Source of the DNA: an uncultured bacterium
GTDB lineage: Bacteria > Verrucomicrobiota > Lentisphaeria > Victivallales > UBA1829
Direction: 5' to 3'
DNA: 64,000 nucleotides
Assembly: GCA_902802585.1 (NCBI GenBank)
Contig: CADCMR010000012.1
Coordinates: forward strand, 229 to 64,228
Each line of letters starts with the position of its first letter. Positions within the stretch are counted from its first letter, which is position 1. The position numbers and the translations under genes are program-made. The notes under the pieces were generated by a model. It did no database searches and was not told where the DNA came from. It saw only the letters and a list, made by a program, of their open reading frames with translations. Shown here piece after piece: positions 12,466 through 41,511 of this stretch.

Positions 12466-12479
12466 CTTGAAGAATCGAA

Positions 12480-16178: not shown

Positions 16179-16322
16179 CGCATCACCTGACGCCTGTCGT
16201 ATGAAGAATTACTTTCCGCCAGGAAAGGGGGGACGCAAAAACCATTCGTTCTCTCTCATGGGGTGTAGACAAGTTGACTTTATTTCAGCGTGAAAAAGCA
16301 ATATCCATGCAATAGCTGTTAT

Positions 16323-16350
16323 ATTATAGCCTTCATCCGATTTTTTTCAA
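16323..16350 (-). promoter_or_regulatory. Sigma-70-type promoter for the hybrid kinase gene
   Basis: Minus strand: TTGAAA (16345-16350), 16-nt spacer, TATAAT (16323-16328). This implies a leader of about 135 nt. Confidence 0.5.
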
Positions 16351-16480
16351 GCTCAAGCCATGTTTTTCCCGAAAAAAAACAGGTTCCGCTTCCATAACGG
16401 ATTCGACGATGGCGCACAATGATGAAGAACAAGCTACCGGAAAATATTGAAAAAAAGTGAGATAGGTCTCGTTTCCCGGC

Positions 16481-16509
16481 TTGACATTTTCACGACATGG
16501 GGATAAATT
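16481..16509 (+). promoter_or_regulatory. Candidate promoter for the giant gene
   Basis: TTGACA (16481-16486), 17-nt spacer, TAAATT (16504-16509). This implies a leader of about 560 nt. Confidence 0.4.
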
Positions 16510-17073
16510 GTCTATGGATTCCGGCTCCGTACCAAGCGGAGAACGGTTTTCAAGCTCATTTCTGTTACATTCCTGCAAAAGAACATGTGGATTCGCCAAG
16601 TTTCTAAAATGCTCTTTTGCTCTTGAGAAAGAAGTCCCGGCACAGGATGCATTGTGGTTTCGTGTTCCGCCGGGCACTTCTTTGCTCGTCTCAAGGGCGG
16701 ATTTCCGGCGGACCGCATATTCGCACAAGGGGAAGGCGTCCGGCTTTTTGGTCAAGATGCACTCCGCAAGCAGAAACATAATCCCTTTCGAGGTTGTCAT
16801 GCCCGTGTCCGTCAGTCCATACCGCCAGCATCCGTCTTCAGCCGGAAGTCCGCACTTCCGGCAGGGCACGGCATATTCCGCGTCGAATCCTGAACCGCGG
16901 GTCCAAGCAAGTTCAATTTCATCTCCCGGCGAACAATCAGTCTATGCCAATCGCCGTTCTCCCATACAATTCGCCGTCCGCGTCCTCAATCCGGACTCGT
17001 TTTCATCCGGCGAAGAGCATTTCTCAATTCGATTCAAATCAAAATCAACATATCACGACAAGGTGAGCATAAA

Positions 17074-20000
17074 ATGATATACACTGTCTCCAGCGGAATC
17101 ACAAGTGACGGCGTTCTACTCCAAACCGGCTATGACAGTATGACGATCCAGGATGGCGGAACCGCGACGAACACAGTCATAACACACGGCAAAATGATCG
17201 TCTATGACGGCGGTGTCATATCCCACACGGACGCAAGCGGTCTCTGGAGCTATATTTATGTGACATACAACGGTCAGGCCAATGACACGGTCCTTGCCAG
17301 CTCCGCCTCGCTCTACGTCAACGTCGGCGCTTCCGCGAACCGGATCACCCTCAATACGAGAGGAATCGCCATTGTTTCCAGCGGAGCCTTCGCAAGCGAT
17401 GTGACGATTGGCGAGTCCGCCTTTCTTCACATTCGCGACTACGGCGTTGCCAGCGGCATCGTCGTCAACAGCAGAGGCAAACTATGCGTTTCCGGAGGCG
17501 GCAGCGCGTATGGCGTAGTGGCATCAAGCGGCTGCGAGCTCAATTTTGTCGTCGCGAAGGATACTTGCGTCGAGTGCGTGCATGACGGAAACGCGTTAGT
17601 GATAGAGAGCGGTTCCCTGACGGAGCAGACCATCCGGAATTCCTGCACTGTTGTCATTTCGAGCGGGGGCACGGTAATCTCCAACGTCGTATCGAGCGGG
17701 GGCACGGTGGAATTCTTCGACGGCGGGACCGGGCGCGACAACACATTGCTGAAAGACGGTACATTCAATGTTTCCAGCGGTGGGGCAGTCGATAACACGT
17801 TGATCAGCGGCGGTCTTCTCAATGTGCGGAGCGGCGGCGTGGCGAACTCCACGACCATCGAGGCCACCTCAAATTGGTCCAGCGGACTGAAGGTCTGGTC
17901 CGGAGGAAGCGCGACTCATACGACCGTCAATTCCGGCGGTTCTTTTCAGGTGTATACCGAGGGAACCATTTACGACATGACGATCAATTCCGGCGGACAG
18001 GGGCTTGTGTCATCCGGCGGCATCGTCAGCAGCATGACGATCAATTCCGGAGGTTGTTTTAACGTTCAAGGGGGGCAGGTCGAGAATGTGCTGGTCGGTT
18101 CCGGCGGAAAACTCGGTTTTGGCATTGTCCTCCCTTACAACAGCAGTACCGGAAGCGGCGTTCTCAAGGGCATTGAGGCTGCATCTGGAGCCATCCTCAA
18201 TCTCGGTGTGGCTGAAAGCGGTTATATCGAGGGGACCTATGCCGGCAGCGGATTTGAAATAAAAGACGGTTTTGTCTCCGGCTACAGCATCGACTCCGCC
18301 TGCACACTCGCCATTTCCAGCGGATGCTCTGCCGAGAATACAACGGTCGAGTCGGCAGGTTCCATGATTGTCTCCAGCGGCGGCACGGCAAAAAGCACTG
18401 TGGTCAGCAACGGGTCCATGTTCGTTTCCAACGGGGGCGTCGCCAGCGCCGTGTTTTTCAACGGCGGCCGTTTCGAGGTCTATTCCAGCAGCTTTGTCGA
18501 GGATGTCATCTTCAGCGGCGGCAACTTCAACATATACGACTATGCGATTGCAAACAGGGTTTCCGTGCTGGGCGGGGGCCTCTCGATCCGGGGTTCGGCG
18601 ACCGACGTTGTACTTGACGGCGGCATCTGCACCATTCCATGGAACTCACCCGGGACAATCCTCGGGATCGTGGTCAATCCGAAGGCCACCCTGTCTGTTT
18701 CCCGCGGAGGCCATGTGGAAGGCATTACGGAAAACGGCGGTTATGTCCAGATTGCGGACTCGACAACCGTAACTTTTTTGCATCATGTCATTCCGGAGCT
18801 GATTTTAAGTTCCGGGGAATCGGCGACTCTGCATTCCGGGACCACTGCCACCAGCGCGGTCCTTTCCGGCGGCAAAATGTATGTCTACAGCGGCGGCATG
18901 CCGGAGCGCACGACAATCAGCAGCGGCATGGTTTATTTCCTGGGAGCGGATGCCGGAAATGTTGAAATTTTCAGCGGCGGTTATCTCGAACTCGTATCCG
19001 GCGGAGTTGCGAACGACACTGTGGTCAACGGCGGCAGCATGTCCGTCCAGGAAGACTGTTCCGTGATCGGATGCGCCATCTATTCAAACGGCACCGTCAC
19101 AATCAACAATAGAGGGCAGGTCCGGGATGCGGTCCTGCAGGGGGGTGTTGCCTCCCTGTCGGGGGGCGTTCTGATCAATGCCGAGGCAGATGAAGGAGCC
19201 CGTGTTATCGTCAACAGCGGCGGCATGGTCGACGGCCTCACGGTCAAAGCCGGCACAACCTTGAACGTATACAATGGCGTGGCCGTCAACATTCTGGAGG
19301 AAGGCGGCTGGATCGACGTTTACGAAAACGGCGCTCTGACGATCGTGCCGCATGCCGCCCAGTACGGCACGTTGTCCTCCGGGCGGAGTGCGTCCGTCCA
19401 TTCCGGAACGACCGCGCTGGATGCGACTGTCGACGGCGGTTGGCTCCATGTTTCCAGCGGCGGCATCGCGTCCGGAGCAAGGATCGAAAACGGATTTCTG
19501 CTTGTTTCCAGCGGCGGCATGGCATTCGGCAATGTACTGAAAAACGGGAATCTGATTGTCAGCAACGGGGGGACCGCCAGTGATACGACGCTCCTCGGTG
19601 GCGCTTTTGACGTCAGAAGCGACGGCATTGTGGACAATGTCATCATCAGCGCCGGTCACATCGCCGTCGATTCTGGCGGCACGGCAAACAACCTCACCAT
19701 GTTGACCGGGTATGTTTTCGGTCAGAACGGAGGACATTTCAGCAACGTTGTCCTGTCCAGCGGATCCATGGTTGCGGGGCTCGACACCTGTATGTCCGAC
19801 GTTTTCGTGTCGAACGGCGCCATGCTTTATTTGACCAGCGGCGTGACGGTGGAAAATATGACCGTTTTCAGCGGCGCTTCCGTCTCTATCGGGAGTGGCG
19901 CATCCGTGAACAACCTCACACTCTCAAGCGGGGGGACACTGTTTCTGCAGGGCAATCCCGCCATCACCAACCTGGACTGGACGCCTTTCGCAGGAAGAAT

Positions 20001-23000
20001 CAAGACGGAGAACTATTCCGGCATCAGCTATGTGCGGGAGTATTCCGGCGTCTACTACGGTTCTTCCGAGTGCCTCGTCTCGCACGCCGGACAGTTGGAT
20101 TCCGTCCTGGTAGACAACCAGGATTCGATGTATGTCATGTCCGGCGGAAAAGCAACCGATACGACAGTCCTCAGAGACGGAAGAGTCTTTGTTTCCAACG
20201 GCGGCGAGCTGGACGGGATTCAGCTCTCGGATATGGGATGCGTATCTGTTTTCTCCGGCGGCATCGTGAACAACGCCGTTCTTTCCAGCGGCTGGAGCGC
20301 ACGGGTACAAGTGTTCTCCGGCGGCATCGTAAACAATGCTTCCGCATTCGACGGGGGAACCGTGGTGGTTTCCGACGGCGGCACGGCGAATCAAACGACC
20401 GTCGCTCGAAACGGCGGCATCTTGGTTTCCGGCGGCATCGCGAACGATATCACAGTCCTGTTCCGCGGCACGTTCCGGGTGGACAGCGGTTCCGCCAGCG
20501 GCATCGTAGTTTCCAGCGGCGGCACAGGCGTCGTTGGAAGCAGCGGTCTGATTTCCGCGGTTTCCGGCGGCGGGACGATTGTCGTCTACGACGGCGGCAC
20601 CGTCAGCGGTATCGTGGTCTCCAGCGGGGCCTCCCTGTGTGTCTCCAACGGAGGAACCGTGCTGGACCTGGACTGGACGCCATTGGAGACCACGCTTGAG
20701 ATCGCAAACAGCGCCAATGTCGTTTTCGCCAGTTCCTGCTGCTTCGTCTACCATTGCTCGTCCGGTTCGATCTTGTCCCGGGCGTCGACGCTGGAATCGA
20801 CCGTCGTAGCCTCGTCGGAAATCATGTACGTGCTTCCGGGCACGAATGTGGACAACATTACGGTCGAAAGCGGCGGGCGGCTTGTCGTATTTTCCGGCGG
20901 ATCGGCAACGAATATCCTGAGCGAGCCGGGCGAGGGAACGATCTTCACCTACAGGAATGCGCATGTGACGTTCGCCGGTCATGCGAGCGGAGTCTACCTC
21001 GGTTCGTCCGGCGTGTGCCTTTCCAGCGCGGCGGTCGTCAGCGACAGGGTCGTCGCCTCGGACGAGACGATGTACGTCATGTCCGGCGGCACGGCAAACA
21101 ACATCACCGCCAGCGGTGCGTCCGTTTGCGTTTACGGCGGGGTGGCGGACAGCATAAACGCCGTAAGGGCAGGCGACAACGCACGGACCTCCGGTGTGGT
21201 CATCGTTTCCAGCGGCACGGTGAACAATGTGTTCCTTTCGTACGGCGGTATATTGGACGTCTTTGACGGCGGCACGGCGAACTGTGCCTCGGCGTTCTAC
21301 GGCGATGTCACAGTCTACAGCGGCGGCACTGCGAACGACACGAACGTCAGCTCGTATCGGAGCATCACCATCAAAAGCGGCGGTACGGCAAACAATACAT
21401 TCATCGGATACGGCGCGACGATGCTCATTTCCGGCGGCTCGGCTGTCGAAACCTTCCTCAGCGGAAACATGCTCGTTTCCGGCGGCGCTTCCGTGGAGAA
21501 CACATCCGTCTATTACGGGAGAATCAATGTCTACAGCGGCGGTACGGTAAATGACACGTTGCTTGTTTACGGCGGGCTGACAGTCCACGATGGTGCGCTG
21601 GTAAGCGGGGTGGTGTTCTCCAACGACGGCGCGATCTATGTTTCGAGCGGCGGCTCGGCGACCGGCATCAATGCGTCCGGCGGAAGAGTGTATGTCTACA
21701 GCGGCGCGTCGATCGGGACAATCTTTGAAAACGGAGGATATGTGGAGCTTGAGGACGGTGCGGAAGTAACGTTCGGGTCATCTCTCCTGAGCGGCGAGAC
21801 ATTCAATTCCCTCACCACGATCCATTCCGGCACGACGGCGCAGGACGTGCAGGTCACCAACAGCACCTTGGTATACTCCGGAGGACGGATCGAAAGCGCC
21901 GTCATTCACCATGGTCATCTTTTTGTTTACAGCGGCGGCATCGTCGTGAATCCTTCCCTCGACTATGGAGCCAACGTTTATATTTCCAGCGGAGCTACCT
22001 GTACGGACATCTCCATCCACACCGGCACCCTCAATGTCTGTCCCGGTGCGATCGTAAGCCGCATCACCCTTTCCGGAGGAAGGTTCACTGTGTCCAGCGG
22101 CGGAATTGTCAACGATGTCACGGTCAGCAGCTATGTGAGCATGACGGTTGCCGATGGTGGAGAGGCAAACAATGTCCTGGTCGACGGGTATGGCGGCAAT
22201 GTCACTGTCAAAAACGGCATGCTCCTGAACGCCACCGTTTCCCGGGGCGGGATCACGGTTCTGGCCGGGGGCGAGTGTTCCAATGCCGTTGCCGTGGACG
22301 GTGGACGCATCAACGTCTCCCGCGGCGGCATCCTGACGGAAACCGACATCCGGAGCAACGCCGGATTGACCGTCTGGAGCGACGGTCAGGCAAACTCCAT
22401 AACGGTCCGGGATGGCGGAACCCTGGAAGTTTCCGCCGGAGGCGTGGCGAAAGAAGTCAAGATGGAAAACCGCTGCAAAATCGATGTCAAAAGGGGCGGT
22501 TCCATCGATTCCGTATTCGTCTCGTCCGGCTGCAGCATCGTCGTTTCCAGCGGCGCATCCGTCATGAACATCATTGAAGGCGGCGGCTGGGTGGAGGTCC
22601 AGAGCGGAGGTGTGGCGACATTTGCGTCACATGCCATCGATGACTTGATTTTGAACAGCGGAGCCCGTACCGCAATACACTCGGGAACGACACTGAACCG
22701 CGTCACGATCGGCAGCGGGGCATCCCTTTTCATCTGCGACGGCGGTCTGGTCCGGGACATCGTCCTTTGCGAAAGCGGCTCCCTGCTGTTGGAAAGCGGC
22801 GGCAGCGCGGACGGAATCACCGTATCCGAATATTGTTCTTTCACGATTCCAAGCGGGGCTGTGGTTACGGGAATCCAGGAGGACGGCGGCTGGGTGGAAG
22901 TCCAGGACGGGGCATCGGCATCGTTCATCTCCGCGAATCTGGAGGGGATGGTCCTGTCCAGCGGTCAGAGCGCGACCGTCCATGCCGGGACGACCATGAC

Positions 23001-24200
23001 AAGCGGAACGGTCGCGGGCGGAGGCTGTCTCAAAGTGATCGCCGGCGGCGAAATCCATGAAACCGAAGTTCTGAAAGACGGGAAACTGTCTCTGGACGAT
23101 GCCGGCATCGTCAGCAATTCCTTCCTGAATGGCGGCAAACTGGAAGTTTCCGCCGGCGGCATCGCGGACGGCATCGCCGTGAACAGCGGCGAGTTCGTTG
23201 TTTCGACCGGTGGCTCCGTGAACGACATTTTAGTAACAAGCGGAGGCTCCCTGACAGTCCTGAGCGGCGGTACTGTGACTGTCCTGAAAGAAAACGGCGG
23301 CTATGTCGACATCCAGGACGGCGCGGAAGTCGTTTTCCTGCCCAACACCATCAGCGGCAGGGAAGTCTCCAGCGCGAATGCCACGGTCCATTCCGGAAAC
23401 ACCGCGGTCGATCTTGTCATCGGATCCCGGGGACAACTGTTCGTTTGTGACGGCGGGAGCGCCGTCGTGACTTCGATCACCTACGGTACGCTCAATATTC
23501 TTGAGGGGGGCAAAGCATTCACCCCCGTTTTCAGTTATTATGGATCAATGAATGTCAACGGCGGCGAAATCTACGACGCCATTCTTTCCGGCGGCAGGAC
23601 AACCATCCTGAACGGAGGCGTCGCATACGCACCTCAGGTCTTCATGTACGGCAAACTTGATGTTTCCAGCGGCGGTATTGTCAGCAGTCTTCATGGTCAG
23701 GGCGGCAGTATCAACGTATACGACGGCGGTCTGGTAACCAACGCCAGGCTGACGTCATCGGCCGCAGGGATAACCGTTTTCTGTGGCGGCGTTGTAAACG
23801 ATACGGCAATCAGCTTCTATGGACGTATCAATGTAAGCAGCGGCGGTATTGTCAACAGAGTAAGAGGGGGCAATCTGAAGGTTTTTGAAGGAGGATTTTT
23901 GGAATCCGCGGAGTCCGTTGTAAGCCTCACCGTGAACGTAGGCGGCCTGGTCAGCAATGTGTCATTGAACGGAAGCGGCAACATATACGGCACCGCATGC
24001 GTTCTTCAGGCAGGTTCCTATGCGTCACTGGTTCTTTCCGGAAGCGAGGCTTTCGCCGACAGCGTGACGCTCAACAAGGGTGGATTCATGTATGTCTACG
24101 ACAATGCGTCCATCCAGGATCTGACCATCCAATATGGAGGAACACTTAGTGCCTACGATGCGACAGGCCTGACAAATACGACGATCAAATCCGGTGCGAG
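17074..24200 (+). repeat. Short-period (about 19-21 aa) degenerate beta-helix repeats of AIDA-I/TibA/Ag43 type
   Basis: The pattern [VI]xSGGxAxxTx[VI]xxGGxxx[VI] recurs, for example VSSGGTAKSTVVSNGSMFVSNGGVASAV. These repeats recur in blocks up to about 32100. Confidence 0.8.
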
Positions 24201-27200
24201 TATAAACGGTTTCAAGACCGAAGAAGACTTTTTCAACGAGTCCGGGCTGTACCTTTCTTCCCTCGTCATTACTTCGGGACAGTATGCCAACCTCTACAAC
24301 GGATTCTCTGTGAAGGATGTCACGATCAAGCCGGGTGGATGCCTGACGATTGAATCAGGAGGAAACGTGGAGAATCTGATCGTATCGTCCGGCGCCGTGC
24401 TGTACTATAAGGACTATGCATCCGCCTCCAATATCCTGTTTGAACAGAATGCGTTGGTCAACAATACAAGGCTGATTGCATCCATGTATGTCGACGACCT
24501 CGAAAGCATGGTCGTTTCAAGCGGATACAACGGGAATCTTTCCTCGGGACAGACTGCAACCGATTTGTTTATCCGTGACTATCTGTACGTTCAATCCGGA
24601 GCAAGTGCAAACCGGATTCATGTGTCCTCCGGGGCAATACTCTCTTTTTCCAGCGGCGCACAATTGACCGATGTTACAATATCCTCCGGCGCCAGCCTGA
24701 ACGGCATACCGCTGAACAGGAACATGTATTTTGAATCCATGGACCAGTATGTCCTGAGCAATATTGTCGTGGGCAGCGGCCGGTATGGAAACCTGTATTC
24801 CGGTCAATCCGCCGTTGGGGCGGTTGTCGAACGAACGCTTAATGTCGCAAGAGGAGGAATGGTCGTGGATACGGTTGTATCGGGCTACGGATACCTCGGC
24901 GTTGGCGGTTCGGCACGGAACGTCATCCTGGCGGGCGGTTCCGCGGCAGCACTGTATTCCGGTGTTCTGGAGAATGTTGAAATCCGGTCCGGCGCAATCC
25001 TGTATGTTTCAAGCGGCGGTTCGGCAACGGTTGTGTTCAATCCGTGGCAGGGACTTACGGACCTGTCCGAAGGGGCATTCATCAAATTCCTGAAACGGGA
25101 TGCTAATGTATACTATGGCGCGGGACAGAGCGGTATCGTCTCGAAATCGGACTCCATGGGGCAATTGAACATTCTGTCCGGGAATACCGCAATCGTCTAT
25201 TCGGGCGGAATTCTCAGCGGCTACATTAATTCCACCGGAACCCTCCAGCTCCTGAACGGCGGCACGGTCTCCCTGCTTTATTCCCCATGGGAAACGGATG
25301 TGTCGATCACCGTGGAGGACGGCGCGACGCTGGAGCGGATCGGGCGCGACGCGAAGGTTTTCTATGGCGGAAATGCAACGGGCGTCCTTTACAAAACGGA
25401 CAAGCTTCAGGATTTCACGGTTTCGGCCGGGAACAGCGCGATCGTTTACTCCGGCGGTTCCGCAGACGGCATTCACGTCCGTGCGGATGCGAACATGATC
25501 GTTGAAGAAGACGGCGTCGCGGAGAATCTGTACATCAATGAAAACGGCGCACTTTTCGTGTCGAGCGGAGCCGTCGCTACGGTCAACTACAATCCGTGGG
25601 GCGGCGTCGTGATCACGGAGGACGGCGCCGAAGTGACCCTCTATGAACGGGACGCTCTTGTCTACTGCGGCGGAGCCGAAACCGGTTTCCTCCAGAAGGC
25701 GGACTCCCTGTACCATTATTCCATTTCGTCCGGAAACAGTGTAATTGTTTACGAGGGCGGCGTCGCCGACTATACCATCGTAAACGACTCCGGTACGATT
25801 GAGATTCTCAGCGGCGGCAGCGCGGAAATCGTGTTCAACCCGTGGCACGGGGAAATGATCGTCGCGGAAGGCGGGACCATCACCCATCTGGACCGGGAAT
25901 ACGACGTCTATTACGGCGGTCTTGAGTCCGGCCTGCTCAGCCGCGGCAATGAAATGGAAAACATGGAAATCGCCAGCGGAAACAGCGCCATCGTGTACAG
26001 CGGCGGCGTGCTGCGCGACGTAACGATGGGGTCTTCCGGTTTTATCCTCGTTTCAAACGGAGGCCTGTTATCAGGTGCTTATCTGTCCGGGGGCACCGCC
26101 GGCAGCTCGGGGTATTCTCCCTCTTCCAGCGGCGGGGAAATGGTCCTGGTGAAGGAAGAGGGCATCATTTCTTCCGTGCAGGTGCTTGACGGCGTCAAAG
26201 TATGCGTTTCCGGCATGGTCTATGATGTTGTCCTGAGCGACGGGAAAACAAGTTCTCCCAGTCTGCTCCAGTTGCAGGGATCCGGGTATGCGGACCATGT
26301 CGTTGTCAATGAAAGAGGTCTTCTGGATTTGACGGCTGCCTCCCTGGCAAAGGACATAACGGTAAACTGGGACGGTTCTGTCTCGGTAAGCGGAGGGGTT
26401 GCGAGCAGCATCACTGTCAACGAAAACGGATCTCTGACGATTTCCTACGGAACCGCCGTCGATCTTAATGTTTCTTCCGGAGGCAAACTGTATCTGTCCG
26501 CCAACGCGGTCATTCAAAGTTCTTTGTTGAAGCAGGGGGCGCAATTCAACAGTTTCACTTTCATGCAGGACAATCAGATTGACAATACCATGATTTTCTC
26601 GTCCCTGCTGGTCGATTATAAAGTCAGTGCGGTCTTGTATGAAAACCAGATGGCATGGGACATCGCCGTGAGCTCCGGGGGCAAAGTGCTTTTCCGCAAC
26701 GACGCGAAAGCGTCCGGCGTCCATGTGTCCAGCGGCGCATACCTGGAATTTTGGAGCAGGGCTTCCGTCACGAACCTGGTTCTTGATTCCGGCGCATTAT
26801 TCCAGAACATCACTTTGGCGAACGAGGAAACCTATCAGTCGTTGGACCAGGTGGTCATTCATGGCGGGACAATGACGGCGCCGGATCTTGACTGGCGCAG
26901 TCCGGATATCTACGCCAGCCTGTATGCCGGGCAGACCGCGAATGACATTCTTGTCACTCCCAAGACTTTCCTGGTGTTGAGCAGCGGTGCAAAGGCATAT
27001 CGCACCGTTGTTTCCGGTGGATTCCGCGTTTCCTCCGGCGGAAACGCCTTTGACGCGTTCGTGGCGCAAGGCGGGTCGATGGACGTCAGCCAGGGCGCCA
27101 GTCTCAGCGGAGCCCAGGTCCGCGGCAACTTGCACATATTCAACGGAGCCCGCGAGGTTTCCGATGTTCATATCCTCTCCGGCGGCGCATTGGTCGACCC

Positions 27201-30200
27201 GACCCTGAGATGGGGCGACACGGTCACGTTTGAAAGCGGGGCGTATCTGATCGGAACTGTTTCCAATGCGGCGAATCTGGATCTGGCTGGCGGCGTCAAT
27301 GTGCAGTATGCCGACATCACGATGAATTTCTCGCAGCGCGAAACGGGATTCGACGCCATGTTCAGCGACATTTCCTGCCTGAACGACAAGGATATGAGTC
27401 TCCTTGTCGATTCGCTCCAGGCGTACGGCGAATACAGGATTGGCGGAAACGCCTCGAATTACAACGGAACCATCACGGTCAAGCTTTCTTCCGGCGAAAC
27501 CTGCGGCCAGCTTTCCCTTCTGAATCCCTCTTTGTCTTACGACATCAACGAATACGTTCTTTCCCTGAATGCCGCGGACGAGCTTTGCCTGACCATTACG
27601 TCCTGCATTCCGGACAATTCCGAAATCCTGGTCTACAAGTCGGGACAGCTTGTGGAGTCCGTGCACTCCGCCTACGAGTATACCCTTCCCGACGAAGGGC
27701 ACGACCACATGTTCGTCGTCTCGAACGCCGTTGTCGAGCGGACGGAGGTCAAAAGCGGCGGCATGCTGACCGTCCTGAAAGGCGGTTCCGCGGAGGAAAC
27801 GATCGTTTCGGGCGGGACCATGCGTGTCCTGAATGGCGGGAGCGCCAGCATGGTGGACATGTATGGCGGCACGGCGCGGCTGATCGTCATCGGCGGAAAG
27901 GTGGAAAACCTCAGTGGCGGAAACATTCTTGTTACGGACAGCGGGATAATAGAAGACTCCGTGGTCGGCGGCGTGACGGTGCAGAACGGGGGCAAAGTGA
28001 TATCCGCTGTGGTGCACGGAGGCAATGTCTCATCAGGCGGTCTTCTGGAGTCCGTCGGTCTCAATGACCGGGTATCGGTCTTCGATCAGGGTGTCGTGAA
28101 GGACGGAAGCGCCTGGGGCTTGCTGTATGTCATGCAGGGCGGCGTCGTTTCCGGAATGGAAGTCACACAGTCCAACTGGTGGGGCGGTGGGTTCGGAAGC
28201 GTCTTTTTGTCCGGAGGACGGGCGGTTGACACCGTGATTTCAAAAGGCGCCATGATCGTATCAAACGGCGGCATCGCAATCAATACGGATTTGGAAGCCC
28301 GGCAGTATAAATGGCACACCAGCTATTCCGACGGAATGTGGGTCAGCAGCTGGGGTCCGGAAGGGTACATGACGGTTGACTCTGGCGGGCTTGCCTCCAA
28401 TACCAGAATTGCCGGGGGGCTCATAGCCGTCCTGGATGGCGGTCTGACGGAAAAGACGGAAATATCGTTGAACGGCATACAGGTCGTATCGAACGGCGGA
28501 ATAGCGGCGGGGACGGTTTTGACGGCGGGTGGAAATCTGTTCGTCTCCGGCGGGGGCCTGGCAACGGATGTCCGGGAGCAGCAACATGGAGCCGTTGTCG
28601 TATCCCGGTTCGGGCAGGTCAGCGACGCCACGGTGGACAAATACTCCCTGATGCTCGTGTCGAGCGAAGGCATGGTCGAGGATGTGGACGTCAAATCCGG
28701 CGGCAAGCTTTATCTGAGGAACGGCGCAACGCTGACCGGCCGACTCCGGACCGAAAAAGGATCCGTCGTGTTGGCCTACGACGGGGCGACAATCAATTTC
28801 GAACTGTCGAAAGCCTCGCCGGATTCCCCGCTGATTAACGATTTGGGCGCTGTCTCCGGCAATCCGGACTATTCCGTCACCGTGTCCGCCGACCTGGAGA
28901 CAGGGGTTTATCTGCTGGCGGGCGGCGTGGAGCATTTTGACGGGACGATCACCGTACAGGACGATCTTCGGAGATACGGTTCCGTATCGCTGGGGCAGTC
29001 CGTGAAATACGGATGGAACACCTATTCCCTGGTCCTGGACCATGGGATCCTGTCGCTGACGGTTGCCGGCAATGAAGAACTGGCTCCGGCCGACGGCGAT
29101 CCGCTTTTCCAGACGACCGTCTATGACGCGAAGGCATATGCCGGGGAGACCATTGTGGTCTCCAACATGTATTCCTATTACGAAACGAAAATCTACGACC
29201 GCGGCCTGCTCCAGGTGGAGAGCGGCGGCCTTGCGGAAGGCGCCCTCCTGAACAAAGGCGGCGGTCTGACCGTGCTCGGCGGCGGGTCCGCCCTGAACAC
29301 GCAAATAACCGGTTCCGCCAGAATGGATGTGATGGATGGCGGCGTTGCGACCGACATCGACATGAAGACCGGCGTCGTATATGTGAGCGGCGGCGAAGTG
29401 CATGGGGTGTCCGGCGGAAGTCTTCATGTAACCCGGAACGGTCTGGCAACCGACGTGACCCGTGCACGGGTCACACTGGCCACGGGCGGCAGACTGGTTT
29501 CCGGCACGGTTACACGGGCCGTCGTATCTTCCGGCGCCCGGCTCGAGTCGGTCAGCATTACAGAGGGCGGCGCCGTGCATGGCGGCGGTCTGACTCTGGA
29601 TATGACCATTTCCTCTGGGACGGTCAGCGTCCTGAGCGGAGGATGTGCCTCGCGGACCCTGATCCGCAATATCAGGCAGGAAGCATACATGGTCGTGTCC
29701 GGCGGCATAGCGGACGGCATTGACGTCGAGGGCGGCACGGTGTTCGTTTCGAGCGGGGGCTCCGCGCTGAACGCGGAATTGAAGAGAGTATTTTACAAGG
29801 AAAACAGAATCATATACGTGCTCAGCGGGAACATGTATGTCGCCGGACTTGCGTCGGACAACCTGATAACGGGCGGCATCCAGCATGTCCTGAAGGGCGG
29901 TTCCGCCGAAGGGACGACCGTCTGCTCCGACGGACGCCAGGTCGTTTCGAACGGAGGGAAAGCCGTTTCGATGACGCTGACCCGCGGCGGCCGGCTGAGC
30001 GTCAGCCGCGGAGGCATCGCGGAGGATGTCCGGGCGGACCTCCATGCGGCCGTTGTCGCCGAACGTTACGGCAAGGTGGACACGCTTGAGCTGAACGAGT
30101 ACAATATGACCGTGGTTTCCGCGTCCGCCGCCGTCACGGATGCGCGGATCAAGTCCGGAGCCGAACTGTATCTGCACCGGGACGCCGTGCTTGGCGGACA

Positions 30201-33200
30201 TGTCGAACTGGAAAACGGCGCTTTCGTCATGGCGTACGACGGTTCGGTCGTCGACTTCGACCTTTCGCGGGCGAACGGCGAAACACCCCTTTTCAACAAC
30301 CTGGGGCTGATCCGGGGCAACCCCGGTTACACCCTGACCGTAACCGGTGACGCCGCACCCGGCAGATATCTGCTGGCAGACGGCGCGGACGGCTTCGGGC
30401 AGTCCATCACGGTCCGGAGCGACCTCATGCGGTACGGCGTCCTGACGGTCGGCACATCGCTTGACGTCGGCTGGAACACCTATTCCCTGAATCTGGAGGA
30501 CGGGATCCTGTCCCTGTCCGTGACATGGAATGCCGAAGAGGTCTCCACTGGCGAAATCATCGTCAGGAAGACCGTCTACGACGCGGTCATCCACACCAGC
30601 GAAACATTCAACATCGCGAGCGGATTCACCTACTGCGAGACGACAGTCGAGAGCAGAGGGTATCTGATTGCGGCGAACAGCACCACGGCCAGCGAAACCC
30701 GCATCTCCGGCGGCGGACGGATGGCGGTCCTGAGCGGAGCTTCGGTCGGGCACACCTATATCGGCTCGAACGGATTGATGGAGGTGCTGAGCGGCGCCGA
30801 AGTCCATTCCGTCATGCTGGAAAGAGGCGGCACGATGAGCATTGCCAATGCTTCCGCGTCCGATGTTTCCGGTCTTTCCAACCTTTCCCTCGGTTCCGAC
30901 GGATACCTTTCCGCCACGGACAACGCCGTCGTGACAAACGCACGGAATGTCTATGCCGTGCTGACGTCCGGAGCGCGCATCGTGTCCGGATCCCTCAACG
31001 GCGCGGTCGTGTCCTCCGGGTGCGCCCTGGAATCCGTTACCCTGACCGGAAACGTTTCAATCCTCGGAAACGCAACCATCGTGGACAATGTGATGACGGG
31101 GGCCTGGTATGCCACGCATGTAAATGTGTACGGCGACGGGTTCGCCCTGAGGACGACGGTGAAAGACGGAACGATGCTCCTGTTCGGCGGCATGGCCGGG
31201 GACACGGTGATTGAAAACGGCATACTGTTCGTTTCGAGCGGCGGAACGGCAAGCGGAACGGAAATGCGGTCCGCCGCCGGAACCATGGCCGTTTGCGAAG
31301 CCGGATACGCATCCGGCACCACGATCCTCGGCGGAACGCAGTTTGTCTCAAGCGGAGGCGTCGCGGAGAGGACCTCCATTTCATCCCATGGCAGCCAGTC
31401 CGTGGTCCAGGGCGGTCTCGCGTCGGATACGACCTTGGACCGCGGCGGCCGGATCGTCGTTTCCCATGGCGGCCGCGCCGAAAACGTGCATGCGGCAGGG
31501 AACGGCGCGGTAGTGGTGTCCCGCCAGGGGCTGGTGAAGGACGCCGTGGTCGACGCATTTAACATGATGGTCGTTTCGAGAGGCGGTCGCGCGTCGGACG
31601 TGACTGTCCGCGCCGGCGGCGAACTGTACCTTTACAAGGAATCTGTCCTGGGCGGGCATCTTAGCTTCGAAGACGGCGCGGTCGTTTCCGCCTATGAGGA
31701 ATCGGTCATCAATTTCGAACTCGCGTTGGCAAACGCCTCGACCCCGCTTGTGAACAATCTGGGCATGATAATGGGGGTCCCGTCTTTTACGGTCACGGCC
31801 GACGCGGATACGGCGGACGGCGTGTATCTGCTCGCCGGCGGAGCGGAGGATTTCGACGGCGTGATTACGGTGTATTGCGAAACCACCCAGTGCGGAGTTC
31901 TTTCCGTGGGCAATTCACTTGCCTGTGGATGGAAGACCTACGCGCTGTCGAGGACCGACGGATCGCTGGTCCTCTCCGTCACCTCGAACGACATCTGGCA
32001 AGAACCCGTCGAAGAGGAGCCGGAACCGGAGGAAGTGGAAACCATCGTGAGCTCCGGCTCCCAGGTCTCCTCCGCGGAGACGCTTGTCTGGGAAAAGACC
32101 GGGGAGGTCCTGCGCGTGGCGGGCGGCGCCATCCTGAAAGACACGGAGATTCCGTGGGGCGGCACGCTGATCCTGGAGAAGGACGCCAAACTGCAGGGGA
32201 CGATCAGGCTCGGAACGGATGTCCGGGTGGAAGGCATCGTGGATGCGGAAAAGGCGAAAATCGAGCTTGACATCTCGAAACGCAAAGAGGAATACGGTAT
32301 CCAGATCGACAATATCGTCTACCTGGAGGCGCTCTCCTATTCCGTCCTTGTGAGCCCAGACCAGAACAAAGGCGAATACATCCTCGCGGGGAACGCCGAG
32401 AGTTTTGAACAGGAAATCACGGTCAGGAATACCGCCGGGACTGTCTGCGGGACATTGAAGATGTCACAGGGGTTCGGGTATCTGGACTACGACATCACAC
32501 GCTATACGCTGTGCATGGACGAGAACAACAACATGGTTTTCATCGTCGGCTCGACCATCACGAACGAGGCGGAGTATGTCCTGCTGTACAGGAACAACCG
32601 TCTGGTCCTTGCCAAGGAGTCCGGATACAATCTGCTGATTTCGACGAAAAGAAGCAAATATGACCAGATGATCCTGCTCGACAAGGGGTATGCCGACCAG
32701 ATCCGGGTCGAAAACAACGGTCTCGTCATCATCGAAAAAGGCGCCACCCTGATCGTTTCGAACCTTGACAAGACCGGCAGGCTCCGTTTCGATTACGCCG
32801 AGGGCGACAATACCGTCATCAAAGGGCTGAACGCCTACGGTTCCTTCTTCGCTTGCGACAATGTCCTGGAAAATGTCCAGGGAGAATACGTGACTGTGAC
32901 GGGACATGTCTTCATGCGGGACTACCATGGACTGGGGCAGTTGACGACCCGCGACGGCGTGGAACTGACCGGCATGGCCGAAAACGGATACTACAGTTTC
33001 TCCGGGACGTGGATCCACGATTTCACGATGTGGAATTTCCTGACCTGTACTTTCGAAAGCGGTACCGTTGTCCAGAATACGGAATGGATTCAGCACAACC
33101 CGCGGACTTATGTGTTCATCAAAGATGAAAGCGTTTTTGAAAATACCGTCTTCAATTGCCCGAAGACGGACTTCATGATCTATGGGGGGACGTTCTCCGA

Positions 33201-36200
33201 AGTGACGTTCAATGTCCTCGTCGGGGTTGTTGGTTATGTTCGTGCAACCGGCGACCTGCATTTCCTGGTCGGAGTCGGAGGGAGCGGCATCATCGACATG
33301 TTCGGGCACACGGCGACGATGAATTATACGACGCGCGATGAAGACTGCGACCCCATGATTAATCTGGAGCTGTTCTCCGAGGATTCGGTCTTCCAGATTG
33401 ACATGACACGGAACCAGCCGATCGGGACCTACGCTCTCTCGAAGGGGTTCCGCGGACCGTACAATATTTGCGTCGACGGGGAAATCATCGGAACCATCGA
33501 CGACGACAGACTGTCGTTCGTGCACGACCTCTACTCCTATGTCGCTGACAAGTCCGGCCGCGTGACCATCGACATCGCCGACGATTCGGACGGAACCTAC
33601 ACCTACGTGTGGTACGATACGCAGAATGAAATCTACCATGCGGCGTCCGCTTCCGATTTCACGATCGGACAGGATCTCTATCCGGAGATGATCGTCAGAA
33701 AAGAAGGGGATTATCTGAAACGGATGGTCCTCGACTGGGAAGGCATGCTGAAAGTCCGTACAGGCGGCCAGGTGATCGAACTGGACCAGCGCAAGAACGG
33801 CAGGATCCGTTTCAATTACACGGAGAACGACAGCACGTACATCACCGGCATCAACCCGTACGGCAGTTTCTTCGTGAAGGACAATGTGCTGGAGAACGTA
33901 TACGGAGAGAATGTCACGGTTTCCGGCAATATATCCATACGGGACTACCACGGCTATTACAATTTGGACAGCGAACGTGTTGTTAAGTGCGGCACACTCA
34001 GGACGGAGAATGGCGTCTCCATCACAGGTACGTTCGGCGGGGGCTCATACTCCATCAACGGTTCGTTCCTGAAGGATTTCGTCCTGGAAGAACCCGATAC
34101 CATAGGAATCGAATTCAGACAAAGCTGGCTCGAGCGCGGCGAGCTGGACGGCGGATCTTTCAACTTCCTTTCCGGTGCGACGGCAACGAATACCATCTTC
34201 AACACAGACGGTGCGTTCAATGGCGGTTCGACCGTTTCGGATTCCGTTTTCAATTCTGGCGTGCTGTTTAGCGGGGGTACAATCTCCGTGGCGAACATCG
34301 TGATCAACACAGGATACACACTGGGGGCGTTCCGCACCGACCATGTCCTCGTGGACATGAAGGGAGATATTACCCTGAACTGTGCCGGCAGCTTCCAGTG
34401 GGATACCTGCATCAACGTGAACGGCCATACGGTCACTGTGAACTACAAGGACCGCACCGTCACGGACAGAGGCATGTTCTCCGTGAGCAACTTCTCGGAA
34501 GACGTGAATTTCCGCCTCCTCTTCCAGAAAGACCAGAAGATCGGCACATACACGCTTGCATACAACGCCGGCAGTTTCGTCGACTATTTCCTGATAAACA
34601 TCGGCGGCGTGGACACGGAGGAACTGTCGTTCGAAAACACGGAAATGGACTACGGCAACTACCATTATGTGATTTCGCATGACGTGGAGACGCAGCTCAT
34701 CAAGCTGACGATCGACGTCTCGGAGAAAGCCGACGAAACGTTCAACGTCTATTACTGGGATTCCACCGAGGAGGAATTCTACCACAGCGCATCCGTCGAG
34801 GGGCTGGTGTTCGCACAGGACGACTATCATTCCCTGATTGTCCGGAACCATGGGATCGTGCGCAGGTCCGAGCTGAACAAGGGCGGAATCATCACGGTCT
34901 ATGCCGGCGGTGAAGTCCTGGACCTGGAGCAGCGGACAGATGGCAAGCTCAGGTTCGACTACGCGCAGGGCGACGCCACCATCATCAACGGAATTCATTC
35001 CTACGGATCGTTCTTCGTCGAAAACGACAGGATGGAGAATGTCCTGGGCGATGTCGTTTCCGTCAACGGGATCCACGTGGATTCCTACCACAGCGTGAGC
35101 GGCGGTACGCTTACGACGTATGCGTCCGACGTCACCGGCGTCTTCACCGGGGATGGAACCTTTATCTTCAATGGAGGTTCCATCCATGACCTTGAAGCGT
35201 ACGATGGGGGTTGCATCATCCAGAACGGGACACTGGTTGACCAGTCAAAATTCTATGTCGACTATGTCGTCTCCTGCGCCGATTGCTATGTCGAAAACAC
35301 CACTTTCGCCTACGGGGTCAACCGCAGGGTCACGAATCCCCATGTCAGCCTGGGCGGCGGCACATATTCCGAAGTGGTGGTCACGGCCGATTGGATCGTG
35401 AGCGGATCCATCGATCTGGACGGCGATATCACTTTCAGGACAGGAGGATCCATCAATAACTCCCCGTGGAACAGCAGTGCAATCCAGGGAAACGGACACA
35501 CTGTCACCCTCGACATCTCGAACCGCGATCTGCTCGACAGGGCAATGACCAACATCGACCGCATCTACAATGCGGAACTGCGTATTGTCGTCGACCAGAA
35601 ACAGCCGGTCGGGACCTATATCATCGGATCCTATGCAGCCAACATCGGTCAGGGTGACGCGAAAGGCGCCTACAACTGGGATACGAACAAATGGGATTAC
35701 AAGGGGGACGTGATCGGCGACCTTGACGGCGTGATCTCCGTGTACGACGTCAACGGCATTGAGCTGGCGAACTGCACGGTCAACGGCGACACGGAATACT
35801 TCGGACGCAACAATTACACGGTGTTTGTGGACAGCGAGGGGTATCTCCGCCTGAAAATCGGCTGGAACAACCGCGAAAAGGTCAACTACAAAGCCGATGC
35901 GCTGGAAAGCAACGACACGCGGGAAACGGCAACGGAGATTACCGGAAGCGGTGCCGGTCAGCTGTCCGGGCTCACCATCGACTCCGAGTCCGACGTTGAC
36001 TGGTTCAAATTCGAGCTCGGATCGTTTGGGCGCAAGTCGAGCTTTATCGGAATCGACTTCAAGCAGTGGCCCGGCGACCTGGACATCAACCTGTACAATT
36101 CCGACGGTGAGCTCATCGACTATGCCCGGAGCGTCACGAACGACGAACGGCTGTCCCTGAGCGGCCGTACCGCAGGAACCTACTACCTGAAAGTTTACGG

Positions 36201-39200
36201 CTGCACCAGCAACACGAACACCTACAAACTGGTGTACGACCTGCCGGTCCCGATCGAACTCACGGACGACTACGAAACCGGAGACGACAAGGAGCATTCG
36301 TACTTCCTGAAACGCCTTGAGGAGCAGATCACGGTCAACGCCAACATCTCGCGCGGCGACGACCAGGACTATTACATGTTCATCCTGCCGGAAAAGGGAC
36401 TGGTCAGCGACGTCATCACGCTGAACTACGACGACGAATACGGCGACCTGGACCTGTATCTGTACGACCAGAACGGGAAAACGCTGCTGCTCTCTTCGAC
36501 GAACATTTCCGGCGGACAGGAACGCATCTCCCTGGCCGGCCTGAAGCACGGCGTCTACTATGCGGCGGTGAAGTCGAAGGACGGCAGCGTCGGCAGATAC
36601 GAGCTGGTGTTCGACGTGAACGACCGCGACGTGAATCCGGACAAGTACGAGAACAACAACTCGATGAAGAAAGCGACCAAGCTCTACACGCTCAACGGCG
36701 GAAAGACGCTTGACGGGCTGTCCATCCACAGCGAAACGGATGTCGACTACTACAGCTTCTCTATCATGGAAAAGGGGTCGTCGGACGACTTCATCACGCT
36801 GAGCAGCATCGCCTCGCTGGGTGACCTGGACATCGAAATCCTGAACGCGGACGGCGATGTGGTCGCCTACTCGCGGACTGCGGAAAACGAGGATACGGTC
36901 AGCCTGAAGGGACTCGACGCAGGAGAATACTTCATCCGCGTCTTCGGCTACAACAACGTGGAGAACAACTACTCGCTGAGCTGGCATGTGACCAACTCCT
37001 CGCTGATTCCGTCCGACGAATACGAAGGCTATGAACCGATCCTGATCAACGGAGACCAGACGATCTCCGGTCTCTCCATCGCGAAGGTGCGGGAAGAAGA
37101 CGAGACCCGCGAAGACACGTTCCGGATCGTACTGGCGCATGATGCCTGGAAGCGCAGCAAGATTATTCTGACGGACTACCGCAGCGACTGGGAGGACGGC
37201 ATATCCTATGTCATCAAGGATGCCGACGGCACGGTCCTGATGGAAGGCGTCGACTCCGAGATCAGTCTCTACGAACTGGAGCAGGGCGAGTATTACCTCA
37301 CACTGGATGCGCCGAACGAGGACGAATACAGTGAATACACCCTGATCGCGCAGAACATGCCGGATTCCGACATCGCGAAGGACAACACGTGGAGCATCTT
37401 CATTTACATGGCGGGCGACAACAACCTGGAAGGCGCCTTCCTGCAGGAACTTCTGTACATGCAGAAGGCGATCCTCCCCGAAAATGTGGAAGTCTATGTC
37501 CTGCTGGACCGTTCCCCCGAAAACGCCGTGGCGGAACGCAACTGGACCGACACCCGCGTGGGCAAGATCCGCCACAGCAACGGCGGCGCAGTGGCGGTGC
37601 AGTGGATGTATTTCTACGGCGTCGACACCGACACGTATATGAACACCCATAACCTGGAACTGAAGCAGGAATGGGACACCGGCGACGTCGCGACGCTGGA
37701 AGCATTCCTGGACTGGGGCATGAAGGTCGGTCGGGCAGACAACTATGCGCTGATCGTGAAGGACCACGGCACCAGCCTCGGCTACAACTGCACCGACGAG
37801 ACCAGCGGTTCCATCATGTCCATTGACCAAATCGCGGACTTGCTCAGGAAGGACAAGTACGACGACCTGTCCGTCGTGGCGTTCGACCAGTGCCTCATGG
37901 GCAGCGACGTCGTGATTACGACCATGGAGGGTACGGTCGACTACGTCGTGGCGTCGGAGGCGGTCGGCTACACGCCGAACTGGCTGGTCATGTACAAGGT
38001 CCTGCTGAACAGCTTCGAGACGGAAATGACGCCGCGGGAAGTCTCACAGAAGATCGTGGAAGCATGCAACTGCTCGGGGTTAAAGGATTTGACCATGGCA
38101 TCGTTCCAGTCCGAAAACCATACCCTGAGCGATGCCTTGAACCAGTTCGGCGAACTGGCCTCGGAATTCACGTTCGGCGACTGGGTGACGCTCTGCAAGT
38201 GCTACAGCAAGGTTTACAACTACGGCGATGAAATCTGCGCCTATTCCGACCTCGGCTCCATCCTGAAGATGGTGAAGGGCTACCATGAAACCATTTCCTC
38301 GACGCTGCTGGATGCCGTGAATACGCTGTACGATGTCGTTATGAACGACGTGATCGACAGCACCCTGATCACGCCCAGCGCATACGGCTCTGGTCTGGCC
38401 GTGTTCAATCCGGTCCTTTCCAATCCAATGATGGCGATGTACGGTTACGGCGCGGACAATACACTGGACTACTATGCCACAGAGATCGGACAAAGCGCAT
38501 GGGGCGACTATCAGTACAAGCTTTCCAAGCTCGCCGAAGAATGCACTTCCTACCTCTCGGAACAATCCGGCAGATTGTCTTTCACCGACTATACCTACAT
38601 CTACGACTTCGAAAACGACGAAATCGCCGTCTCGTACGACCTGGGCGCTTTCTCCGGTAATGGCGTGACTTACGAGGGCCTTTACATAGACAGGACCGCG
38701 TGTTTCGAGCTCTCGCTGATTCAGCCGGGCGAGGAAAACGACGCCATCGTCATTACGGCGGACAACCCGGATGCGGAGATCACGGCCTATCTGTGGCAGC
38801 AGTTCATCGGATCTCCGAACCCGACGATCCGCCGCATTTCCGTAAACGGCGTTCTCTCCCTCACCGGAATCGACCATCAGAGAGCCAGGTCTGGAGAATC
38901 CTATACACTCTACATCACCAGCACGGAAGAAACGACGTACACGATGAAATTCGTCGGCGACTGGACAAGCGGCGTGGACTACTTCGACTATTCGCGCACA
39001 GGGTCCATCTCGCCGCTGGCGGCGGGCAATAATTCCATCGACAAGGCCACATCTCTGGCAAGCGGCAATTACGGCGGCCTTGTGACCTGTGCCGGAGACA
39101 AGGACTACTACAGGATCCTGTCCGTCTATGCAAACGAAATCGACGTGACCGTGAAGGGGACGGACCTCGTGGTCCGGGAATTCAACGCTGAAGGCGAAAT

Positions 39201-41511: not shown

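Follow-up and report, generated by a model that had tools for sequence, protein, structure and literature searches.

The window analysed here is a stretch of 64,000 nucleotides (nt) from contig CADCMR010000012.1 (assembly GCA_902802585.1) of an uncultured Lentisphaeria bacterium. A single gene on the plus strand, at 17074..41511, encodes a protein of 8,145 amino acids (aa), hereafter called the giant. The open reading frame (ORF) listing and the translation contain one stop codon, which is terminal, in agreement with the single 24.4-kb ORF reported in a first-pass annotation made from the bare sequence. A mass of 857 kDa and a pI of 4.4 were computed, and cysteine is present. About three quarters of the protein (~6,270 of 8,145 residues) is right-handed beta-helix of the AIDA-I/TibA/Ag43 type, split into segments by about eight small beta-sandwich caps. 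The last ~1,900 residues hold PPC domains, a C11 peptidase, Ig-like spacers and an FG-GAP propeller. The giant belongs to an undescribed Lentisphaeria family of the giant secreted repeat adhesin type, of which no larger or more complete member was encountered here; literature searches returned no description of this family.

The preceding in-frame stop lies at 16891 and position 17074 is the first ATG, GTG or TTG thereafter. The N-terminus is thus not extendable, since no in-frame start codon is found between the two positions. A Shine-Dalgarno-like AAGGTG precedes the ATG; the motif had been recognised before at a distance of 7 nt, which was measured here as 8 nt. The N-terminal sequence MIYTVSSGITSDG... 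agrees with the family start MAYxISSG....

At the DNA level, the frame has a uniform coding signal, with a G+C content at third codon positions (GC3) of 0.65-0.82 in each 3-kb tile. Tandem Repeats Finder detected zero tandem arrays in the gene, the longest exact direct repeat measures 20 nt and a sensitive blastn of the gene against itself gave only seven matches, all short and weak. No DNA repeat in the gene is long enough for assembly collapse. Codon-aligned macro-repeats of the protein share 39-42% of their amino acids and 50-53% of their nucleotides. This is lower than the 60-65% DNA identity estimated by eye in the first-pass annotation, and strengthens the argument drawn there from diverged repeats, as recent expansion or repeat collapse is less likely at an identity of only 50-53%.

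A domain map was made by scanning nine overlapping tiles with Pfam and NCBIfam and combining the matches with self-BLAST, hidden Markov models (HMMs) built from the giant's own repeats and two AlphaFold2 models. The gene and its signals are laid out as follows.

17060..17065 (+): Shine-Dalgarno-like AAGGTG, 8 nt 5' of the giant ATG, read from the sequence.
17074..24063 (+), aa 1-2330: AIDA/TibA/Ag43-type strand-loop-strand beta-helix repeats of 18-19 aa with an xGGxA motif (PF16168, E = 1e-48; TIGR04415, E = 5e-51).
24064..27093 (+), aa 2331-3340: variant beta-helix with higher-order repeats of ~85 aa and ~88 aa ('NPW'), from self-BLAST (AIDA matches, E = 1.6e-22); colinear with ORF2 of the homologous locus L021.
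27301..27618 (+), aa 3410-3515: first beta-sandwich cap (cap HMM from the giant's own copies, E = 5e-7).
27631..32019 (+), aa 3520-4982: three macro-repeats of ~485 aa, each a beta-helix and a cap (self-BLAST, own HMMs); colinear with loci L015, L007 and L021.
31999..32043 (+), aa 4976-4990: acidic Pro/Glu linker EEEPEPEE at the junction of the AIDA half and the C11-bearing half, read in the sequence and kept in the homologue alignment.
32044..32475 (+), aa 4991-5134: short helix and cap, corresponding to the N-terminus of stand-alone C11 proteins (P0017, L001 and L009 ORFs).
32476..35883 (+), aa 5135-6270: three modules of ~370 aa without Pfam match, each an Ag43-like right-handed beta-helix with a C-terminal beta-sandwich.
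35896..37353 (+), aa 6275-6760: four PPC beta-sandwich domains (PF04151; with an own HMM, three strong copies and a diverged fourth).
37402..38613 (+), aa 6777-7180: C11 (clostripain family, clan CD) cysteine peptidase (PF03415, E = 7.6e-21).
38614..39393 (+), aa 7181-7440: post-protease region, possibly two PPC-like beta-sandwiches; sub-threshold matches only, kept in orthologues.
39418..40386 (+), aa 7449-7771: four Ig-like repeats of the OmpL47/CHB_HEX_C type (NF047446, E = 1.4e-18; PF03174; PF13290; four copies with an own HMM).
40387..40623 (+), aa 7772-7850: tentative FN3-like domain (PF00041, 18.4 bits, E = 0.0025, under the Pfam cutoff).
40630..41508 (+), aa 7853-8145: FG-GAP beta-propeller cassette with five DxNxDGxxD Ca2+-type loops, ending in ...NSWQVLATLS (PF01839, PF13517).
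41542..41571: possible terminator, a 13-bp GC-rich hairpin 31 nt past the giant stop and 5' of an oxidoreductase gene, from a consensus scan only.

The hierarchical organisation noticed at first reading was recovered at the level of the ~485-aa macro-repeats, the ~370-aa modules and the ~88-aa repeats, the last located by self-BLAST at aa 2606-3000. The anticipated profile matches for AIDA repeats, PPC, Peptidase_C11 and FG-GAP were likewise found in the HMM scans. PF16168 and TIGR04415 match tiles covering aa 1 to ~4,900, and the spacing of the xGGxA motif peaks at 18-19 aa. Past the linker, the cap HMM matches at aa 5055-5166 (E = 2.7e-10), running into the first 370-aa module. An AlphaFold2 model of aa 5505-5885, made with a 19-sequence alignment, consists of a right-handed beta-helix followed by a beta-sandwich (predicted local distance difference test score (pLDDT) 89, predicted template modelling score 0.85). 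With Foldseek, Ag43 structures 7ko9 (E = 4.5e-8) and 4kh3 were the top matches of this model, with pertactin and Hap next and a TibA fragment lower.

The strong AIDA and TIGR04415 matches, the partial matches to the NCBIfam models for AIDA-I and Ag43, and Ag43 as top structural match of the 370-aa module would all be expected of a type V (autotransporter or two-partner) adhesin like AIDA-I, TibA or Ag43, of which the signal peptide or barrel was missed or is encoded elsewhere. However, the AIDA-I and Ag43 models score at most 241 bits, far under their cutoffs of 1,200 bits. No signal peptide is present at the non-extendable N-terminus, with zero Lys or Arg in the first 38 residues and a maximal 12-aa Kyte-Doolittle mean of 1.09, and a signal-less N-terminus is common to hundreds of family members. 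No transmembrane-like window was found by hydropathy along the entire protein, and the autotransporter barrel PF03797 gave no match in any tile with Pfam or NCBIfam. An autochaperone is missing too, and the C-terminus is a soluble propeller. Because signal peptide, transmembrane segment and barrel are all lacking, the giant is, judged from its sequence, not a type V autotransporter. A type V adhesin is a poorly supported and highly improbable explanation. Of the earlier AIDA-I/TibA/Ag43-like label, the repeat type stands and the family assignment does not.

Colinear relatives of the giant were found in five independent assemblies.

L007, Lentisphaeria RGIG10120: a 4,010-aa open frame ended by the contig edge; one high-scoring segment pair (HSP) with giant aa 4,116-8,145, 58% identity.
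L005, RUG12414: giant aa 4,751-7,847, 59% identity.
L017, JGI metagenome: giant aa 4,859-7,798, 63% identity.
L015, JGI metagenome: a complete ORF of ~4,795 aa with the family N-terminus; one HSP with giant aa 3,548-7,611, 50% identity.
L021, ENA metagenome: giant aa 1,639-4,193, 35-42% identity.

Jointly, these cover giant aa 1,639-8,145. In the more distant L002 and L009 (~44% identity) the two halves are neighbouring genes, split at the giant's junction at aa ~4,990. In L002, a TibC-like GT9 gene is followed by the genes of a 1,148-aa AIDA-repeat protein and of the 2,952-aa P0017, which starts exactly at the beginning of the giant's C11 half. L001 carries a stand-alone C11-type gene that starts at the junction and is broken by a scaffold gap (4999-5098). 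In L021 (1-9416), three ORFs are separated by an in-frame TGA (1704-1706) and a frameshift (~6377-6419); this copy may be a pseudogene or contain assembly errors.

Such cases bear on whether the giant ORF is an artefact, be it an assembly chimera or repeat mis-join, a fusion of an AIDA and a C11 gene by a sequencing error near aa 4990, or a decaying pseudogene. The exact split at the junction in L002 and L009, the stop and frameshift in L021 and the many homologues that end at contig edges or scaffold gaps, as in L001, are what one would cite for it. Against it, the independent assemblies L007, L005, L015 and L017 are continuous across the junction and keep the Pro/Glu linker (EPEPEE), colinear support extends over aa 1639-8145, the repeats are only 50-53% identical in nucleotides, with no exact repeat above 20 nt, and codon-position G+C is uniform over 24.4 kb without a stop. 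An artefact is therefore poorly supported and very unlikely, and the giant ORF is almost certainly a real and intact gene. This agrees with the earlier view of a maintained gene: its repeats are old and diverged, and the closest homologues keep one ORF. Homologues with several separate genes, against which the first-pass annotation had proposed to check this view, are limited to the distant L002 and L009 and the interrupted L021. On sequence comparison, the giant is best read as a product of fusion and expansion, of several helix-and-cap units with a C11-bearing protein, the fusion having presumably been fixed in a sub-lineage.

In the C-terminal part, the proposed series of four PPC domains, a C11 peptidase, four Ig-like repeats and an FG-GAP propeller was recovered in full with Pfam, NCBIfam and own HMMs, the fourth PPC copy being diverged. 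PF18962 and TIGR04183 (Por_Secre_tail) matches at ~aa 6,445-6,630 fall inside the PPC array, not at the C-terminus, and sorting of the giant by a type IX secretion system (T9SS) on these grounds was rejected. PF03415 matches the peptidase with 75.5 bits, against a gathering cutoff of 25.8. The predicted catalytic residues are His6898 (nt 37765-37767) and Cys6940 (nt 37891-37893), with Asp6938 two residues ahead of the cysteine. In an alignment to clostripain 9cip_A, IVKDHG pairs with IMANHG and AFDQCLMG with AFDACLMG, so that HG and AFDxCLMG are kept. With its His/Cys dyad intact, the C11 domain looks catalytically competent. The aspartate two residues before the catalytic cysteine corresponds to the P1 Arg-specificity residue of clostripain, and by comparison with that enzyme the giant's domain would presumably be Arg/Lys-directed. 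Two further PPC-like domains behind the protease and an FN3 domain, also proposed at first reading, are weakly supported: for aa 7181-7440 nothing scored above threshold (Pfam DUF3244, E = 0.15; own PPC HMM, E = 0.19), and the FN3 match reaches 18.4 bits.

The propeller itself is well defined, with profile E-values of 2.4e-14 (PF01839) and 2.8e-10 (PF13517). Its AlphaFold2 model (pLDDT 89.8) is all-beta with 23 strands, a soluble propeller placed at the C-terminus. The top Foldseek match is the teichuronic-acid-bound lectin propeller of UmbA4 (9oee_A; TMq 0.70, 21% identity); integrin alpha, a Tc-toxin propeller and a fungal fucose lectin were also matched. The propeller at the giant's tip may bind a glycan, a prospect that we place somewhat below an even chance.

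Searches with internal regions of the giant returned hundreds of Lentisphaeria proteins, named generically at NCBI ('AIDA repeat-containing protein', 'pre-peptidase C-terminal domain-containing protein'). None of the searches gave a 100% match to the giant, and an exact-sequence query with the RecJ of the window matched no record. All close homologues belong to Lentisphaeria/Victivallales metagenome-assembled genomes (MAGs) recovered from rumen, colon or caecum; yak, sheep and roe deer are among the sources, as are the RUG and SIG series. The domain combination, for which the first-pass annotation knew no described family, is thus not unique; it recurs in many of these gut MAGs, as in the ~4,795-aa protein of L015. 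Family members share a conserved, signal-less N-terminus, M-x-Y-x-I-S-S-G..., with a helix rung directly at the start, and a body of one to many helix-and-cap units. The payload varies: C11, C10 (streptopain-like, PF01640), C39-like (PF13529), CARDB or none. The C-termini are interchangeable and consist of propeller type 1 (...WQNIATIA, the giant's type), propeller type 2 (...WTVIA or ...FAIIA) or RTX (...KGMLA or ...GKGILASL). RTX GGxGxD repeats were found in the paralogues and orthologues P0001, P0007, P0097, P0107, L006, L009, L011 and L019. Whatever domain precedes it, an [ILVM][AS] ending is present in 122 of 211 family proteins, most others looking truncated, and the giant's tail ...QVLATLS fits this hydrophobic-hydrophobic-Ala/Ser ending.

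Varying payloads are also a trait of polymorphic toxins, and the structure that the propeller matches best is bound to teichuronic acid. The giant could accordingly be pictured as an inter-bacterial weapon or predation factor, in which the lectin propeller targets cell-wall glycopolymers and positions the protease, comparable to the Streptomyces umbrella toxins and to the Omnitrophota giants, which have been implicated in attacks on other cells (bioRxiv 10.1101/2023.11.21.568195). However, neither an immunity-like gene nor a toxin domain was identified beside the giant gene, adhesion and aggregation are the best-known roles of the Ag43-type helix, and the UmbA4 match is only 21% identical, with generic propellers scoring too. 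A role as a weapon is considered distinctly unlikely.

The spread of the cassette was followed with a type-1 propeller profile, searched against 1.84 billion cluster representatives, which matched 1,522 proteins at E <= 1e-30. In all of the ~60 full-length matches in a single stretch the cassette stands at the C-terminal end, in nearly all of them 0-3 residues from the terminus (at most 14 in two matches that end before the profile does). Identity within the cassette is 64-72% for most aligned paralogues and 49% for the most distant one, the remainder of those proteins being ~25-30% identical. Among the carriers are proteins of 5,225-6,226 aa, some with unrelated N-termini, and the giant's own family also holds proteins of 5,000-6,200 aa with the same cassette. 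P0313 (6,226 aa) is 82.6% identical to the giant over its last 477 aa and 27-30% elsewhere. P0362 and P0370 are giant proteins with unrelated N-termini and the same C-terminal propeller, which is carried as well by P0377, of the 5,200-6,200-aa class. The pattern in these four proteins points to cassette exchange or to very strong constraint.

A fixed position and a conservation of this degree could also mean that the cassette and its hydrophobic tail are a sorting or anchoring domain for a route other than type I, comparable to a T9SS C-terminal domain or a substrate of a secretin or type II secretion system (T2SS), rather than a ligand-binding tip. For this speak the strictly C-terminal cassette, its 64-72% identity next to ~25-30% in other parts, the high identity of the end of P0313 and the presence of the cassette on P0362 and P0370. 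In addition, L001 encodes a secretin, an FHA-domain T2SSE ATPase and two T2SSF proteins (14727-23815) directly downstream of its C11-type homologue, and no type I secretion genes occur near any family member examined. On the other side, the fold resembles ligand-binding propellers (UmbA4 lectin, integrin alpha, fucose lectin), RTX, the hallmark of type I substrates, occupies the same position in paralogues, T2SS-type systems require a Sec or Tat signal, absent in the giant, and the L001 neighbourhood is a single case. We consider a sorting domain of this kind unlikely. Rather improbable as well is the wider proposal that propeller and hydrophobic-hydrophobic-Ala/Ser tail form a previously unrecognised export or surface-anchoring module of Lentisphaeria, which would be interchangeable with RTX and serve as a mobile cassette of several unrelated signal-less giant families (up to >8,000 aa), adhesin-type helices, which elsewhere rely on type V barrels, then being exported by a different route and perhaps still O-heptosylated.

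The host is a diderm of the ruminant gut, a Victivallales-like member of the Lentisphaeria. Genes for LptF/G, ExbB, RecJ, UvrC and starch synthase are present in the window, and it is LptF/G and ExbB that indicate a diderm envelope. In such a cell the giant is probably an extracellular fibre or adhesin with an active-looking protease. Export by a C-terminal, type I-like signal is suggested by the lack of a Sec or Tat signal, a transmembrane segment and a barrel, by the paralogues that swap the propeller for RTX, by the hydrophobic-hydrophobic-Ala/Ser tail that most family members share and by the strongly conserved, strictly C-terminal cassette; we regard the chances of such export as evenly divided. 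Type I would be the most likely route, since paralogues of matching architecture carry RTX in the propeller's place and since no other well-known pathway of diderms is, to our knowledge, open to very large, acidic proteins without a signal. Taken as a whole, the reading of a signal-less beta-helix stalk, exported through its C-terminus and presenting a protease and a lectin-like tip, is favoured with moderate confidence.

In this favoured reading, the giant would leave the cell by way of its C-terminal signal, likely through type I secretion as giant RTX adhesins do, and its folding on the outside would be driven by Ca2+, bound by the propeller (in paralogues, by RTX). The extracellular helix would form a rigid stalk, and at ~0.48 nm for each 19-aa rung its length is estimated at ~100-150 nm. 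The stalk would hold the protease and the lectin-like propeller off the cell surface. The propeller might bind glycan on feed particles, host mucus or other microbes, and the Arg/Lys-directed protease might act on the bound surface or process the giant itself. Serines in SGG motifs may be O-heptosylated where a TibC-like enzyme exists. TIGR04415 ('O_hepto_targRPT') is a model of O-heptosyltransferase-target repeats, and TibC modifies serine in SGG-type motifs (PMC4358343). In L002 (5172-9776), from a Lentisphaeria MAG, the gene of the signal-less 1,148-aa AIDA-repeat protein is immediately preceded by an autotransporter heptosyltransferase-like gene (TibC_1st/Glyco_transf_9), the only such case among the loci. 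This pair suggests O-heptosylation of non-autotransporter substrates in a bacterium of the Planctomycetes-Verrucomicrobia-Chlamydiae (PVC) group.

Several observations weigh against this stalk-and-tip reading. In the 64-kb window no secretion genes were detected, be they for an ABC transporter or of the HlyD or TolC type, nor were type I secretion genes found beside the family members in L003, L004, L013 and L014; such genes need not be linked to the substrate gene. The giant itself has no RTX repeats, with one isolated GGxGxD at aa 217, attributed to chance, and no PF00353 match. A TibC homologue is lacking in the window (tblastn with the TibC-like protein of L002, best E 0.034). The giant's aa 1 to ~1,640 have no colinear orthologue, and among 148 pattern matches to aa 1-600 in a metagenome scan there were zero relatives; these first ~1,640 residues are typical family sequence, with an N-terminus that agrees with the family start. 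Finally, the two halves are separate genes in some relatives (L002, L009) and one copy (L021) is interrupted.

Upstream of the giant gene, the window contains a divergent hybrid histidine kinase gene, a gene for a GH43/CBM6 enzyme and a tRNA-Phe gene. The ~900 nt between the histidine kinase and the giant (16179-17073) hold no convincing coding sequence: the ORFs are low-complexity and Arg/Ser/Pro-rich, two have no Pfam match, and an Rfam scan of this gap found no RNA family. One ORF (16481-17077, plus strand), of which the stop overlaps the giant start (ATGA), was considered as a coupled partner and treated as non-coding, because it has no Pfam match and its low-complexity, Arg/Ser/Pro-rich translation resembles that of an overlapping antisense ORF. 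Long antisense ORFs inside the giant gene (e.g. 38080-41181 and 35245-37830) were treated as shadow ORFs of a GC3-rich gene. Positions 1-12555 look like an integrated mobile element that ends at the tRNA-Phe gene (12480-12555, minus strand), the giant gene lying outside. The features of this putative element and the gene downstream of the giant are given below.

145-945 and 949-1025: 3' part of a group II intron (RT/maturase ORF and intron RNA domain, respectively).
1552-3201: ResIII/DEAD helicase.
3807-6026: primase-polymerase/DUF3987 protein.
7235-8545 (-): AAA_14/DUF4143 ATPase.
8864-9511 (-): HARE-HTH protein.
10367-11719: large serine recombinase.
41784-43784: Old-Yellow-Enzyme-type oxidoreductase (Oxidored_FMN), downstream of the giant.

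Two further ORFs, 45247-48099 (minus strand, 950 aa) and 57949-59964 (plus strand, 671 aa), belong to no Pfam family; the first directly adjoins an ExbB/MotA-type gene (44452-45243, minus strand). In other loci, some neighbours were recorded as well. L013 encodes two T2SSE proteins and one T2SSF protein a few kb upstream of its family member. L007, the locus of the closest orthologue, has ORFs downstream of that gene (12859-18898, minus strand) with N-termini that resemble by eye type III CRISPR RAMP proteins (e.g. ...SAPYNFVPL...), and there is no synteny with the window. L010 (6146-10568), a second locus of the same yak-rumen MAG, has a C11 paralogue followed by a separate AIDA-repeat gene. 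The next ORF there, on the opposite strand, has an N-terminus that resembles by eye the Oxidored_FMN protein of the window, the same kind of gene that follows the giant.

Compared with known systems, the giant has in common with the type Va proteins AIDA-I, TibA and Ag43 of E. coli the 19-aa strand-loop-strand repeat (PF16168, TIGR04415) and the right-handed beta-helix. The SGG serine motif is shared too; in those proteins it is modified by bacterial autotransporter heptosyltransferases (BAHT), and the relative L002 has an adjacent TibC-like gene. Unlike them, the giant lacks a Sec signal peptide, an autochaperone and a C-terminal beta-barrel, is ~6-8 times longer, has a helix interrupted by caps and adds a protease and a propeller. 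They occur in Proteobacteria, whereas the giant belongs to the PVC phylum Lentisphaerota.

The giant RTX adhesins secreted by type I systems (LapA, SiiE, MpIBP, FrhA) are likewise very large and acidic, without N-terminal signal, and combine a long repetitive extender with a C-proximal region of ligand-binding domains and a Ca2+-binding C-terminal module; paralogues and orthologues of the giant do end in RTX repeats. The extender of these adhesins consists of tandem Ig-like domains and their C-terminus of RTX, whereas the giant has a beta-helix and an FG-GAP propeller, no recognised N-terminal retention module, and no genes for an ABC transporter, a membrane fusion protein or TolC nearby.

With clostripain and secreted peptidases flanked by PPC domains, the giant shares PF03415 with its His/Cys and Asp and the flanking PPC beta-sandwiches. 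Distant homologues of 2,000-3,200 aa (cyanobacterial and planctomycete PPC-C11-RTX proteins) have the PPC-C11(-RTX) core in common with it; unlike in the clostripain group, the protease of the giant sits ~6,800 aa into a beta-helix fibre. MARTX toxins offer an analogy only: in them, an internal clan-CD cysteine protease autoprocesses a giant protein secreted by type I, which makes self-processing of the present giant conceivable, but this protease is C80 in MARTX and C11 in the giant, which lacks an effector-domain array.

Giant beta-helix and RTX 'symbiosis proteins' of Chlorobium chlorochromatii (bioRxiv 10.64898/2026.03.19.712371) and the giants of Omnitrophota (bioRxiv 10.1101/2023.11.21.568195) are thought to mediate cell-cell interaction, and Ca2+-dependent folding has been proposed. 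Like the present giant, they are filamentous, rich in beta-helix and extracellular, and come from uncultured or host-associated diderms. They differ in helix type (haemagglutinin/Vgr-like or antiparallel), payloads and phyla, the likeness being one without demonstrated sequence relationship. To the UmbA lectin subunits of the Streptomyces umbrella toxins, the likeness is at the level of the propeller fold only and the overall assembly is unrelated.

Lentisphaerae are statistically enriched in proteins of more than 5,000 aa, none of which has been characterised (PMC11573180). The giant is a full-length, uninterrupted example of such a protein, most public homologues being cut by contig ends, and its gene can serve well as a reference when the many homologue fragments of gut MAGs are annotated. 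Giant repetitive surface proteins as such are common finds; what deserves attention here is a helix apart from type V, the swappable C-termini and a propeller that is always C-terminal. The AIDA/Ag43 helix, normally a type V feature in Proteobacteria, is found in a PVC bacterium without signal peptide or barrel, and with exchangeable cassettes and protease payloads. If the C-terminal cassette were an export or anchoring signal, it would define a new class of secretion substrates. Should the propeller be a lectin, the attachment of rumen Victivallales to particles, mucus or other microbes may be controlled by these fibres.

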